Origin: Waddliaceae bacterium | GTDB taxonomy: Bacteria; Chlamydiota; Chlamydiia; Chlamydiales; Waddliaceae | Reading direction: 5' to 3' | Length of the DNA: 64,000 nucleotides | NCBI GenBank assembly: GCA_963724325.1 | Contig: CAVRUH010000001.1 | Location: 160,001-224,000, forward strand | Part shown: positions 51,098 through 54,485 of the stretch, piece by piece | Position numbering within the stretch: the first letter of the stretch is position 1 | Layout: each line of letters begins with the position of its first letter | The notes under the pieces: generated by a model | The model's database searches: none | What the model saw: only the letters and a program-made list of their open reading frames with translations | Told to the model about the DNA's origin: nothing | Program-made: the position numbers and the translations under genes

Positions 51098-51254
51098 TTG
51101 CGGCCTGCTGTCTCCATTTGTGGCCTGCTGTCTCCATTTGTGGCCTGCTGTCTCCATTTGTGGCCTGCTGTCTCCGACAGCAGACGACCAGCTCTCGGAG
51201 AGAGCTGGCCACTGTGCTGTCTCCATTTGTGGCCTGCTGTCTCCGACAGCAGGC
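51098..51254 (+). repeat. REP/BIME-like array, left part
   Basis: Three 20-bp units TTG(T/C)GGCCTGCTGTCTCCAT, then hairpins H1 (GCCTGCTGTC-TCC-GACAGCAGGC), H2 (CCAGCTCTC-GGA-GAGAGCTGG) and H1. Confidence 0.9.
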
Positions 51255-52740
51255 CTCAAGTTTGGCGGTTTCTCATATTTTTGAGAAAAAACTTTCAAAA
51301 AAAAGAGAAGACACATAATATTTTTGTTTTTCACGCAAATGAGGACAAAAAAATATGTGCCTTCTCGAAACTTTTCTATCACTAGTCTCCCTATGGAGAC
51401 CAGCATTTTGTAAACAAGACACCTTTAGAAGAGTCAAAGATCACGCTGTCGCGACTGTTTGCTCCTTGGGACGCCATACGATCACAAATCTTATCATTTG
51501 GCTTGGAAAAGATCAATTAGATCCTACAGCCGATTATAGATTATACAATGAATATAAGTGGAATGTCGAGGATCTTTTTAACCCTTTATTGGAAAAGGCA
51601 ATGCCGTTTTTTGGAGATGATTATGTTGTTGTTGGAGCCGACGACACTCGTATTCGCAAAAGAGGAAAGAAGATCCCTGGAACATCTTGGGGAAGGGATC
51701 CATTATCACCCCCATTTCAAGTTAATTTAATGTGGGGGCAAAGATTTCTTCAATTTTCATTTCTACTTCCTATGTACAATCATTCATCAGTCAGTGCACG
51801 AGCATTGCCTATAAGATTTATTCATACTCCTCCTTTAACAAAACCTGGTAAAAGAGCAAATGCAGCAGAAATATTAACATACAAGAAATTATGTAAGACT
51901 CAAAATTTATCGACTCGGTATATAGAAGAGGTAAGAAAATTGAGGGAGCATTTAGATGCAATAGGGTGTACAAAAAAACAACTTATGGTCACTGACGGTA
52001 GTTTCTGTAATAGAATTTGCATGAATTTAAACATGCCAGGAGTTGAAGCACTAGCACGCGCCAGAAAGAATTCAAAACTATGTTATCGGGCTGAAGGCAA
52101 TGGTAGACGCACATATGGGGTTAATAAATTCACTCCAGAGCAAGTACGTCAAGATGATAGTATACCATGGCAGTCTGCAATTTTCTTTTATGGTGGTGAA
52201 TGGAGAAGAATAAGATTTAAAGTATTGCGAGATGTATTATGGCAATCTGGCACAAAGACTAGACCGATGAGATTATTGGTCGTAGCACCGTTGCCTTATG
52301 TGAAAAATGGGATTAGAAATTACCGCCAACCCGCCTATCTATTAACAACTGATCTCGAGGCCACAGCAGAATTCCTTCTTCAGAGTTATTTAGACAGATG
52401 GCAGATAGAAGTAAACTTCAGAGAGGAAAAATCTGTATTGGGTGTTGGAGAGGCCCAAGTATGGAGTGAAAAGTCAGCTGAAAGACAGCCATCATTTAGG
52501 GTTGCAGTATATAGTGCCTTATTATTGTCTAGCATTCTGAAATACAAGGATGTGCCACCAATTGATGAAGAGATTCCGAAATGGAGAGACAAGCCACAAA
52601 GAAATACCTGTAGAGCATTAATAGGGATGATTAGAAGTGAAACTCTAGAAAATATAGAAAGTATAATAGATTTAGAATTAACTAGGCCGATGTTATCGGC
52701 AATTTTTCGAAAAGCAGCCTAAAAAACCGCCAAACTTGAG
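51255..52740 (+). mobile_element. Insertion sequence, IS4 superfamily (IS701-like), copy 1, 1486 bp
   Basis: 17-bp TIR CTCAAGTTTGGCGGTTT; flanked by 23-bp direct repeats at 51232-51254 and 52741-52763. Confidence 0.92.
51355..52722 (+). CDS. DDE transposase (IS701/IS4-like)
   Basis: ADDT...K.G, TDG.F, and Y-x2-R-x3-E-x6-K (YLDRWQIEVNFREEK). Confidence 0.92.
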   Translation: MCLLETFLSLVSLWRPAFCKQDTFRRVKDHAVATVCSLGRHTITNLIIWLGKDQLDPTADYRLYNEYKWNVEDLFNPLLEKAMPFFGDDYVVVGADDTRIRKRGKKIPGTSWGRDPLSPPFQVNLMWGQRFLQFSFLLPMYNHSSVSARALPIRFIHTPPLTKPGKRANAAEILTYKKLCKTQNLSTRYIEEVRKLREHLDAIGCTKKQLMVTDGSFCNRICMNLNMPGVEALARARKNSKLCYRAEGNGRRTYGVNKFTPEQVRQDDSIPWQSAIFFYGGEWRRIRFKVLRDVLWQSGTKTRPMRLLVVAPLPYVKNGIRNYRQPAYLLTTDLEATAEFLLQSYLDRWQIEVNFREEKSVLGVGEAQVWSEKSAERQPSFRVAVYSALLLSSILKYKDVPPIDEEIPKWRDKPQRNTCRALIGMIRSETLENIESIIDLELTRPMLSAIFRKAA

Positions 52741-52901
52741 GCCTGCTGTCTCCGACAGCAGGCGACCAGCTCTCGGAGAGAGCTGGTCACTGTGCTGTCT
52801 CCATTTGTGGCCTGCTGTCTCCGACAGCAGGCGACCAGCTCTCGGAGAGAGCTGGTCACTGTGCTGTCTCCATTTGTGGCCTGCTGTCTCCGACAGCAGG
52901 C
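52741..52901 (+). repeat. REP/BIME-like array, middle part (two 69-bp units plus H1)
   Basis: Unit GGCCTGCTGTCTCCGACAGCAGGCGACCAGCTCTCGGAGAGAGCTGGTCACTGTGCTGTCTCCATTTGT repeated exactly. Confidence 0.92.
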
Positions 52902-54387
52902 CTCAAGTTTGGCGGTTTTTTAGGCTGCTTTTCGAAAAATTGCCGATAACATCGGCCTAGTTAATTCTAAATCTATTATACTTTCTATATTTTCTAGAGT
53001 TTCACTTCTAATCATCCCTATTAATGCTCTACAGGTATTTCTTTGTGGCTTGTCTCTCCATTTCGGAATCTCTTCATCAATTGGTGGCACATCCTTGTAT
53101 TTCAGAATGCTAGACAATAATAAGGCACTATATACTGCAACCCTAAATGATGGCTGTCTTTCAGCTGACTTTTCACTCCATACTTGGGCCTCTCCAACAC
53201 CCAATACAGATTTTTCCTCTCTGAAGTTTACTTCTATCTGCCATCTGTCTAAATAACTCTGAAGAAGGAATTCTGCTGTGGCCTCGAGATCAGTTGTTAA
53301 TAGATAGGCGGGTTGGCGGTAATTTCTAATCCCATTTTTCACATAAGGCAACGGTGCTACGACTAATAATCTCATCGGTCTAGTCTTTGTGCCAGATTGC
53401 CATAATACATCTCGCAATACTTTAAATCTTATTCTTCTCCATTCACCACCATAAAAGAAAATTGCAGACTGCCATGGTATACTATCATCTTGACGTACTT
53501 GCTCTGGAGTGAATTTATTAACCCCATATGTGCGTCTACCATTGCCTTCAGCCCGATAACATAGTTTTGAATTCTTTCTGGCGCGTGCTAGTGCTTCAAC
53601 TCCTGGCATGTTTAAATTCATGCAAATTCTATTACAGAAACTACCGTCAGTGACCATAAGTTGTTTTTTTGTACACCCTATTGCATCTAAATGCTCCCTC
53701 AATTTTCTTACCTCTTCTATATACCGAGTCGATAAATTTTGAGTCTTACATAATTTCTTGTATGTTAATATTTCTGCTGCATTTGCTCTTTTACCAGGTT
53801 TTGTTAAAGGAGGAGTATGAATAAATCTTATAGGCAATGCTCGTGCACTGACTGATGAATGATTGTACATAGGAAGTAGAAATGAAAATTGAAGAAATCT
53901 TTGCCCCCACATTAAATTAACTTGAAATGGGGGTGATAATGGATCCCTTCCCCAAGATGTTCCAGGGATCTTCTTTCCTCTTTTGCGAATACGAGTGTCG
54001 TCGGCTCCAACAACAACATAATCATCTCCAAAAAACGGCATTGCCTTTTCCAATAAAGGGTTAAAAAGATCCTCGACATTCCACTTATATTCATTGTATA
54101 ATCTATAATCGGCTGTAGGATCTAATTGATCTTTTCCAAGCCAAATGATAAGATTTGTGATCGTATGGCGTCCCAAGGAGCAAACAGTCGCGACAGCGTG
54201 ATCTTTGACTCTTCTAAAGGTGTCTTGTTTACAAAATGCTGGTCTCCATAGGGAGACTAGTGATAGAAAAGTTTCGAGAAGGCACATATTTTTTTGTCCT
54301 CATTTGCGTGAAAAACAAAAATATTATGTGTCTTCTCTTTTTTTTGAAAGTTTTTTCTCAAAAATATGAGAAACCGCCAAACTTGAG
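52902..54387 (-). mobile_element. Insertion sequence copy 2, inverted, 1486 bp
   Basis: Same TIRs; 23-bp direct repeats at 52879-52901 and 54388-54410; one synonymous difference from copy 1 noticed (52278 vs 53364). Confidence 0.92.
52920..54287 (-). CDS. DDE transposase, protein identical to 51355-52722
   Basis: Identical 455-aa translation in the ORF track. Confidence 0.92.
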   Translation of the reverse strand: MCLLETFLSLVSLWRPAFCKQDTFRRVKDHAVATVCSLGRHTITNLIIWLGKDQLDPTADYRLYNEYKWNVEDLFNPLLEKAMPFFGDDYVVVGADDTRIRKRGKKIPGTSWGRDPLSPPFQVNLMWGQRFLQFSFLLPMYNHSSVSARALPIRFIHTPPLTKPGKRANAAEILTYKKLCKTQNLSTRYIEEVRKLREHLDAIGCTKKQLMVTDGSFCNRICMNLNMPGVEALARARKNSKLCYRAEGNGRRTYGVNKFTPEQVRQDDSIPWQSAIFFYGGEWRRIRFKVLRDVLWQSGTKTRPMRLLVVAPLPYVKNGIRNYRQPAYLLTTDLEATAEFLLQSYLDRWQIEVNFREEKSVLGVGEAQVWSEKSAERQPSFRVAVYSALLLSSILKYKDVPPIDEEIPKWRDKPQRNTCRALIGMIRSETLENIESIIDLELTRPMLSAIFRKAA

Positions 54388-54485
54388 GCCTGCTGTCTCC
54401 GACAGCAGGCGACCAGCTCTCGGAGAGAGCTGGCCACTGTGCTGTCTCCGACAGCAGGCGACCAGCTCTCGGAGAGAGCTGGCCA
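54388..54485 (+). repeat. REP/BIME-like array, right part
   Basis: H1, H2, partial H1, H2; same orientation as the left and middle parts. Confidence 0.9.

Follow-up and report, generated by a model that had tools for sequence, protein, structure and literature searches.

Whole-hairpin target duplications around a DDE insertion sequence in a Waddliaceae bacterium and its relatives

A DDE transposase creates a target-site duplication (TSD) by directing both 3' element ends onto the two target strands at sites with a 5' stagger, and the length of this duplication is normally fixed by the spacing of the two active sites. Tn5, for example, makes 9-bp duplications in ordinary duplex DNA. Elements that act on inverted repeats are known as well. 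One of them is IS1630 of Mycoplasma fermentans, reportedly an insertion sequence (IS) of the IS30 family that Calcutt, Lavrrar and Wise described in 1999 (J Bacteriol 181:7597). The duplications of IS1630 and ISMhom-1 are reported to measure 19-26 bp (PMC2853133) or 16-26 bp (PMC3317919). IS1272/TnSha1, of the IS1182 family, targets inverted repeats of differing size and sequence and is called 'stem-loop-replacing', because the stem-loop is deleted and no duplication is left; a cruciform model in the Discussion and Fig 13 legend of the same paper also has a branch, pathway b, in which the strands are attacked at the 5' feet and an entire stem-loop is duplicated (PMC5678879). The DDE elements of the IS1202 family make long duplications that fall into fixed classes of 27-28, 16-17 and 5-6 bp (bioRxiv 10.1101/2022.12.17.520857). 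IS701 elements have a TSD of exactly 4 bp and no complete YREK motif, and IS4 elements have YREK and TSDs of 7-13 bp (PMC2266710). Here we describe a 1486-bp IS that is present twice in a 64,000-nucleotide stretch of a Waddliaceae genome (assembly GCA_963724325.1, contig CAVRUH010000001.1, positions 160,001 to 224,000; hereafter the window), and whose insertions in this genome are each bordered on both sides by one complete hairpin.

Insertions in the window and across the genome

In the window, the 17-mer CTCAAGTTTGGCGGTTT occurs at 51255(+), 52724(-), 52902(+) and 54371(-), forming two inverted pairs that define two 1486-bp elements, and the 23-mer GCCTGCTGTCTCCGACAGCAGGC (hairpin H1) occurs exactly at 51232, 52741, 52810, 52879 and 54388, always on the + strand; shuffled sequences lead one to expect 0.01 and 0.00 occurrences, respectively. 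These exact matches bear out what an earlier note on this DNA had described, namely two IS copies with 17-bp terminal inverted repeats, each lying between identical 23-mers (Table 1). The 23-mers are part of a tandem array that resembles repetitive extragenic palindromic (REP) elements, with 69-bp units composed of hairpin H1, a second hairpin H2 and a spacer. Where no IS intervenes, successive H1 hairpins start 69 bp apart (51163 to 51232, and 52741 to 52810 to 52879), whereas across each IS the distance is 1509 bp, that is 1486+23. Deleting an IS together with one 23-mer therefore restores the array unit, just as the note had it. All hairpins of the window share one loop orientation (TCC on +), although the two IS copies are inverted relative to each other and carry their open reading frames (ORFs) on opposite strands; this claim, too, stands.

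Taken by itself, the window fits three accounts of the junctions, because the 23-mer is nearly palindromic: a duplication of 23 bp; a duplication of the 3-bp loop, the stems being IS ends within 27-bp repeats; or an ordinary 4-bp GGCC duplication between two abutting hairpins. The window alone cannot separate the second and third from the first. Against these two, the loops keep the orientation of the array on both sides of the inverted copy. We therefore turn to the whole assembly, which comprises 2.37 Mb in 11 contigs (designated G000, with C1 and C5 denoting contigs in the coordinates below). It holds eight full copies of the IS, about 100% identical, plus one 31-bp remnant. All eight full copies are bordered by a direct repeat that equals one complete hairpin of 22-27 bp (20-27 bp if the remnant is counted), so that the coincidence of TSD and stem-loop proposed for the window extends to every copy and to the remnant. 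The flanking hairpins comprise seven distinct sequences from three stem families. Since the half-stems next to the IS vary between copies and the IS itself does not, the stems represent target DNA and not IS ends. Thus, the 23-mer is no fixed part of the element, a possibility that the earlier note had itself raised against its proposal, and the account with stems as IS ends is rejected.

The 4-bp account fares no better. GGCC is missing from most flanks of the copies in this genome, which disposes of an ordinary GGCC duplication, another objection the note had anticipated. Likewise, a genome-wide scan for abutting duplicated hairpins without an IS (hairpins of 16-40 bp, gap of 0-8, stem of at least 7 bp) returned a single case in 2.37 Mb, so that pre-existing hairpin doublets are not the target. 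Free copies of the target hairpins are instead found singly and in the register of periodic arrays, in 41/43, 8/10 and 13/15 occurrences for three hairpins. The arrays have periods of 69 bp (window), 215 bp (C1:769485-774438) and 55 bp (C5:32065-34013), and in all three the period is restored after subtraction of the IS and one repeat. This also answers the suspicion that two abutting H1 hairpins had been present before insertion. With few GGCC flanks and one IS-free doublet, duplication of GGCC between abutting hairpins is rejected as well, and we regard both variants of this explanation as having next to no probability. The note's further remark that H1 was chosen and not its sister H2 is correct within the window; genome-wide it does not hold, because the copy at C5:32309 sits in an H2-type hairpin.

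Two IS copies are found in tandem at C1:958314-961310, with one hairpin between them. The 27-bp duplication of the outer copy, C1:959825, starts with AG, where AC would be expected from the array context. This AG is the two-base terminus of the adjacent IS, and the G contributes one more pair to the stem. The simplest reading of this single case is that the second insertion took the hairpin copy which the first had produced, the cut shifting outward with the longer stem.

Table 1. Features of the window locus (window coordinates) and IS copies of the whole assembly (contig coordinates).
Feature	Position	Strand	Repeat length	Description
Tandem REP-like array	51103..54484	.		Read directly; between convergent genes; interrupted by two IS copies
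Free H1 variant	51163..51185	+		Sequence match; 1 mismatch (GCAGAC for GCAGGC); no IS in it
Left hairpin duplication, IS copy 1	51232..51254	+	23 bp	H1
IS copy 1	51255..52740	+		1486 bp; 17-bp terminal inverted repeats 51255-51271 and 52724-52740
Transposase ORF, copy 1	51355..52722	+		455 aa; Tn5-like DDE with YREK
Right hairpin duplication, IS copy 1	52741..52763	+	23 bp	H1
H2 hairpin of array unit	52764..52788	+		GACCAGCTCTCGGAGAGAGCTGGTC; read directly; no IS in it
Free single H1	52810..52832	+		Sequence match; in array register; internal empty-site reference
Left (window orientation) hairpin duplication, IS copy 2	52879..52901	+	23 bp	H1
IS copy 2	52902..54387	-		1486 bp; inverted relative to copy 1; terminal repeats 52902-52918 and 54371-54387
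Transposase ORF, copy 2	52920..54287	-		455 aa; protein identical to copy 1
Right hairpin duplication, IS copy 2	54388..54410	+	23 bp	H1
Genomic copies, window (two)			23 bp	Flanking repeat H1
Genomic copy	C1:772305		22 bp	Flanking repeat CGAGCCGAATTTATTCGGCTCG
Genomic copy	C1:933760		22 bp	Flanking repeat AGGGCCGAATAAATTCGGCCCT
Genomic copy	C1:956645		23 bp	Flanking repeat GCCTGCTCTCTCCGAGAGCAGGC
Genomic copy	C1:958314		22-23 bp	Flanking repeat GCCTGCTCTCTGAGAGAGCAGG(G/C)
Genomic copy	C1:959825		27 bp	Flanking repeat AGGCCTGCTCTCTGAGAGAGCAGGCCA
Genomic copy	C5:32309		25 bp	Flanking repeat GTCCGGCTCTCGGAGAGAGCCGGCC, H2-type
31-bp remnant	C1:879427-879457		20 bp	Flanking repeat GGCCGAATTTATTCGGCCCG

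A few features of these loci stand apart from the question of targeting. The array opens with three 20-bp half units (GCCTGCTGTCTCCATTTGTG three times in tandem, window 51103-51162), each made of the left half of H1 and a spacer. The gene upstream of the array encodes a TLC ATP/ADP transporter (+), and the one downstream is an ORF on the - strand that has no Pfam match. What is left in the remnant is the left IS end as far as an internal TTGAG; it retains a duplicated hairpin on its flanks and looks like the product of an internal deletion between this TTGAG and the terminal one. The copy at C1:956645-958131 measures 1487 bp and is frameshifted, with its ORF in two pieces and a stop. Finally, the sole IS-free abutting pair (G000:C1:1056258-1056319) contains ACTTTTTCGGAGTCTTATCCGAAAAAGTCA twice with TA between, and could be the footprint left by excision or deletion of a hairpin-duplicating element.

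Relatives and the geometry of the targeted hairpins

The transposase belongs to a large group of proteins. A word-indexed search gave 4238 matches among 8000 scored candidates, nearly all of them unnamed or labelled 'hypothetical protein', and an exhaustive search yielded 307 clusters at 50% identity with E<=1e-30 and 1065 with E<=1e-10; among 72,556 plasmids, tblastn gave no match above about 25% identity. Hairpin-duplicating relatives with 41-55% identity occur in Acidobacteriota, Verrucomicrobiota and other Chlamydiota. To the eight copies of the Waddliaceae genome we add the loci of relatives, taken as the best 80 of at least 549 confirmed stretches from species-representative genomes. They come mostly from Acidobacteriota, with the remainder from Chlamydiota, Verrucomicrobiota and single metagenome-assembled genomes of other phyla. 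An end-motif search located both IS ends in 58 of the 80 loci, the other 22 being mostly cut by contig ends. Three of the 58 lack a flank, and 32 have matched duplications of 17-34 bp, each a single hairpin. Four further loci match by inspection: L047 and L051 (if the outer end is used), L061 (42 bp) and L056 (in part).

How closely does the insertion follow the hairpin? Pooling 16 ends from the Waddliaceae genome with 112 ends from relatives, we find a perfect stem of at least 6 bp within 0-3 nt of the IS end in 121/128 cases, compared with 12/1080 control positions at the same loci. The offset between IS end and stem is 0 nt at 46 ends, 1 nt at 67, 2 nt at seven and 3 nt at one. The matched duplications (n=40: eight from the Waddliaceae genome and 32 from relatives) have unpaired tails that are symmetric in 39/40 cases, with (1,1) found 23 times, (0,0) 13 times and (2,2) three times. 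Loops span 3-5 nt, stems of 8-9 bp account for 26 of the 40, and the length of the duplication correlates with the number of paired bases (r=0.94). Thus, the suggestion of the earlier note that TSD length tracks hairpin length is borne out over 40 insertions. Its main proposal, a TSD equal to the hairpin, is supported as well, the extruded cruciform staying an inference.

The targets share this geometry without sharing a sequence. They range from AT-rich, terminator-like palindromes (AAAAGGCATCGCAATTTAAGTTGCGATGCCTTTT) to GC-rich, REP-like ones; the relatives alone contribute more than 30 unrelated target hairpins with about 20% to about 80% G+C. In the AT-rich palindromes, A and T tracts lie inside the duplication since they pair. 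This diversity bears on a simple explanation of the window, according to which the IS recognizes REP sequences, as IS1397 and the REP hunters of the IS110 family do, and the hairpin is incidental. Both insertions of the window do lie in an identical 23-mer, as such an enzyme would have it. Against this, the Waddliaceae genome alone offers seven target hairpins, those of the relatives are unrelated to one another, the duplication varies in length with the stem, and a conserved target motif is not visible among the matched duplications. We consider sequence-specific targeting highly improbable.

Some relatives differ in architecture. The Acidobacterial elements are 1830-1940 bp long and have termini CTGGAGTTTCTACATTT, their ends having been determined by copy-to-copy comparison. 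These 1.83-1.94-kb elements contain an extra ORF of 133 aa upstream of, and overlapping, the transposase start (L035:1103-1504); Pfam recognizes a HARE-HTH domain in its product (28.5 bits; cut-off 25.9), and the ORF is missing from the 1486-bp chlamydial element. L047 and L051 are compound elements of 2.6 kb in which an additional left end lies about 740 bp inward; the hairpin duplication flanks the whole, and the compound appears to move as a unit. At L061, a 42-bp palindrome is present on each side with its central loop flipped (CTTG versus CAAG) and two other differences, and at L030 about 123 bp of the left flank reappear in reverse complement on the right. Inversion of the loop, an inverted duplication or an artefact of assembly could lie behind these two cases.

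The transposase and its place among IS families

At the level of sequence profiles the transposase is poorly covered. It scores narrowly above the cut-off with Pfam DDE_5 (28.1 bits against 27) and clears no curated transposase model of NCBIfam, where the best match, IS701_3 (NF049999), reaches 137.4 bits over the full length with a cut-off of 170. The IS4 models of NCBIfam align to residues ~195-373 alone, the C-terminal catalytic part, with 28-32 bits against cut-offs of 115-250. Nevertheless, the catalytic residues are evident: all 25 aligned members keep D96/D97, D214 and E352 unchanged, and the YREK motif is formed by Y345, R348, E352 and K359 (Y-2-R-3-E-6-K), of which R348 is nearly invariant and the other three fully so. 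The designation as a YREK-type DDE transposase in the earlier note is therefore correct. An AlphaFold model (predicted local distance difference test 75, predicted template modelling score 0.81) retrieves Tn5 transposase structures as its top five hits in the Protein Data Bank (PDB), with E values of 5e-9 to 2e-8 and template modelling scores of 0.48-0.56. The predicted fold is thus Tn5-like, an RNase H fold with a DDE active site.

The element fits neither the IS701 nor the IS4 definition in PMC2266710. Its size falls within the 1400-1550 bp given for IS701 (De Palmenaer et al., 2008, PMC2266710), a range exceeded by the Acidobacterial relatives. The ends CTCAAGTTTGGCGG read AAGT at positions 4-7, where the IS701 end signature ---YACT-Y--YR, a consensus that does not hold for the whole family, has YACT. 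YREK is shared with IS4, whose 7-13 bp TSD contrasts with the 17-34 bp found here. The ends agree with the signature of the ISPepr1 subgroup of IS4, YT-AA-YTT---A, at 7/8 specified positions, which we take as a lead only. The earlier note had called the element IS701/IS4-like; with TSDs of 20-27 bp and a complete YREK motif, it does not belong to IS701 strictly defined.

The nearest curated relative, a genuine IS701_3 element, provides an instructive contrast. It is present in 11 copies in G145, a further genome from this order, and clears NF049999 with about 300 bits. The protein shares 25% identity with the hairpin-duplicating transposase and has F-R-E-R where the latter has YREK, and the terminal ends CTCGACTTTGTACATTT look homologous to CTCAAGTTTGGCGGTTT. 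Both ends were found for ten copies, and 0/20 of these ends adjoin a stem of at least 5 bp. Five copies have repeats of 5-6 bp (3-4 bp if the IS is taken to be 1 nt longer per end), one has a repeat of 3 bp, three have none, and one has a repeat of 27 bp that is no hairpin (L134, G145:C1:1974975-1979228, AACAGCAGCTCTCTCTGAAAATAAGAA). Conversely, all six hairpin-clade proteins tested miss the NF049999 cut-off, with 115-141 bits. Given an IS701_3 element without hairpins in the same order, and 6/6 hairpin-clade proteins below the model, hairpin duplication is a property of a distinct clade, and neither of the host nor of IS701-like elements in general.

The same comparison speaks to the idea that host enzymes which cut hairpins or cruciforms, such as SbcCD-like nucleases or junction resolvases, break the DNA and that the IS is merely captured at the break. 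Nucleases that cut cruciforms do so near the stem bases. Yet the trait tracks the transposase clade rather than the host, as G145 illustrates, and it spans several phyla, among them Chlamydiota, Verrucomicrobiota and Acidobacteriota; the junctions, moreover, are exact at the IS termini and have symmetric offsets of 0-2 nt. Capture at breaks made by the host is, in our estimation, very unlikely.

Hairpin targeting and its relation to described systems

How might a Tn5-like enzyme come to duplicate whole hairpins? A fixed pair of active sites acting on B-form DNA is excluded, because the stagger spans 17-34 bp, is symmetric about the palindrome and does not depend on sequence. We consider it likely that the element is a cut-and-paste-type DDE IS of the Tn5/IS4-IS701 superfamily which chooses its target by shape, namely an inverted repeat capable of forming a cruciform, and not by sequence. 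We envision a scenario whereby integration would occur where a short inverted repeat is folded on both strands, giving a cruciform or four-way junction. There, the element's two 3'-OH termini would attack both strands symmetrically, each at the 5' foot of one arm and 0-2 nt beyond the stem; strand transfer at these 5' feet of a cruciform is the most likely mechanism. Each hairpin arm would remain joined to one flank, and gap repair would copy the arm, so that a stem-loop results on both sides. The length of the duplication would accordingly be about 2 x (stem + 0-2 nt) + loop, set by the structure of the target and not by the spacing of the active sites. Looping out of the arms would reduce the effective stagger to 0-4 bp, which is the range of ordinary relatives. 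The YREK motif hints at a Tn5-like cut-and-paste hairpin chemistry, which may operate here along with a cruciform state of the target and attack at its 5' feet.

The folded target need not be a cruciform. Alternatively, the hairpin might form on transiently single-stranded DNA, at a replication fork, in a transcription bubble or in a negatively supercoiled wake, or the enzyme might itself melt and fold the palindrome. The frequent stems of 8-9 bp, which are short for spontaneous extrusion, would be accommodated more easily in this way, and many targets coincide with the 3' ends of genes or with terminator-like sites. A direct repeat requires strand transfer on each strand, however, and a purely single-stranded target offers no second strand to attack; the near-complete symmetry of the unpaired tails fits folding of both strands. 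On balance we judge the single-stranded route unlikely, though less so than any of the other alternatives, and favour shape-directed insertion into a cruciform-capable repeat. Because stems of 8-9 bp extrude poorly alone, the enzyme probably either brings about or stabilizes the fold, or it exploits DNA that is transiently unwound.

Several observations sit uneasily with targeting of cruciform-capable repeats. Stems of 8-9 bp are short for a cruciform that forms spontaneously. Seven of the 128 ends are without a stem of at least 6 bp. Among the 55 loci of relatives for which both flanks are present, 19 show no matching repeat, most having a different hairpin at each end, and a search of the unmatched loci for longer duplications (up to 600 bp) yielded none but the 42 bp of L061. 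We infer that recombination between copies or chimeric short-read contigs account for the unmatched flanks, which is shown just for L084 and L085: these two lie on one contig and have their flanks swapped, as expected from inversion between two copies. Many of the unmatched loci are short contigs assembled from short reads, in which a repeat can join unrelated flanks. The two repeats of the inner tandem copy, C1:958314, differ by 1 nt (GGG versus GGC), which is not predicted by a simple model and for which later mutation or conversion is the sole explanation we can offer. Finally, a genome of the same genus, G001, is without the IS and yields no orthologous empty allele, since synteny is broken at the locus, the genes that border the window array falling on different contigs. 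Logan contigs of four public runs (X1, X2, X5 and X6, of 16) contain short IS-internal pieces and no joint across the IS; two loose ends place an IS end beside other hairpins, and since these runs may derive from the source sample they are not counted as independent.

If the element inserts as we propose, it would land in REP-like or terminator hairpins between genes, would leave a hairpin on each side and would turn one target into two. Doubling of the hairpin target would in turn favour tandem insertions. Such behaviour bears on harmless residence in REP and terminator hairpins, with the hairpin preserved for each neighbouring gene, and on the piling up of elements in tandem. The duplication here follows the secondary structure of the target over 17-34 bp, possibly 42, and this trait divides a large uncurated clade from IS701 relatives of the 4-bp type despite similar-looking terminal repeats. 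The contrast provides a clean pair of systems in which to ask what lets a Tn5-like transpososome take a four-way junction as its target. It has a practical side as well, in that IS annotation tools which assume short TSDs, or which extend terminal inverted repeats into the palindrome, will mis-call the ends. A bolder proposal, that the clade represents a new IS family of the Tn5/IS4-IS701 superfamily whose transpososome captures a four-way junction and possibly forces palindromes of 8-9 bp to extrude, is to our minds evenly poised. If true, the family would report, naturally and in vivo, on DNA able to form cruciforms, and it would drive the multiplication of REP and terminator hairpins and of tandem IS arrays.

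Against this background, how does the element compare with described systems? Tn5 transposase (PDB 1MUH, 3ECP, 4DM0) shares YREK, at about 10% sequence identity. The sequence-specific REP-targeting ISs of the IS110 and IS3 types use one conserved target and a DEDD or IS3-type enzyme, whereas the present element has seven targets in one genome and a DDE, Tn5-like enzyme. The length classes of IS1202 are fixed, in contrast to the continuous variation of length with the stem found here, and a term search of the IS1202 text finds neither 'hairpin' nor 'palindrom' (bioRxiv 10.1101/2022.12.17.520857). IS1272 removes the stem-loop, whereas here a stem-loop is found on both sides of 8/8 copies, implying the opposite polarity of attack; the transposase family differs, too, with no IS1182 model among the Pfam and NCBIfam hits. 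In a search that covered publications but not ISfinder or TnPedia, we found none tying IS701-like or Tn5-like elements to hairpin duplication. IS1630 reportedly achieves the same outcome: it, too, duplicates an entire inverted repeat whose length and sequence vary. Whole-hairpin duplication is thus already in print and less novel than the earlier note had assumed. The IS1630 transposase is of the IS30 type and unrelated, no IS30 model appearing among our Pfam and NCBIfam hits at E<=1, and IS1630 is described from a few mycoplasma copies, compared with hundreds of 50%-identity clusters across phyla here. Thus, although the principle is not new, the value of the present system lies in the breadth and tractability of a widespread family with a quantitative targeting rule.

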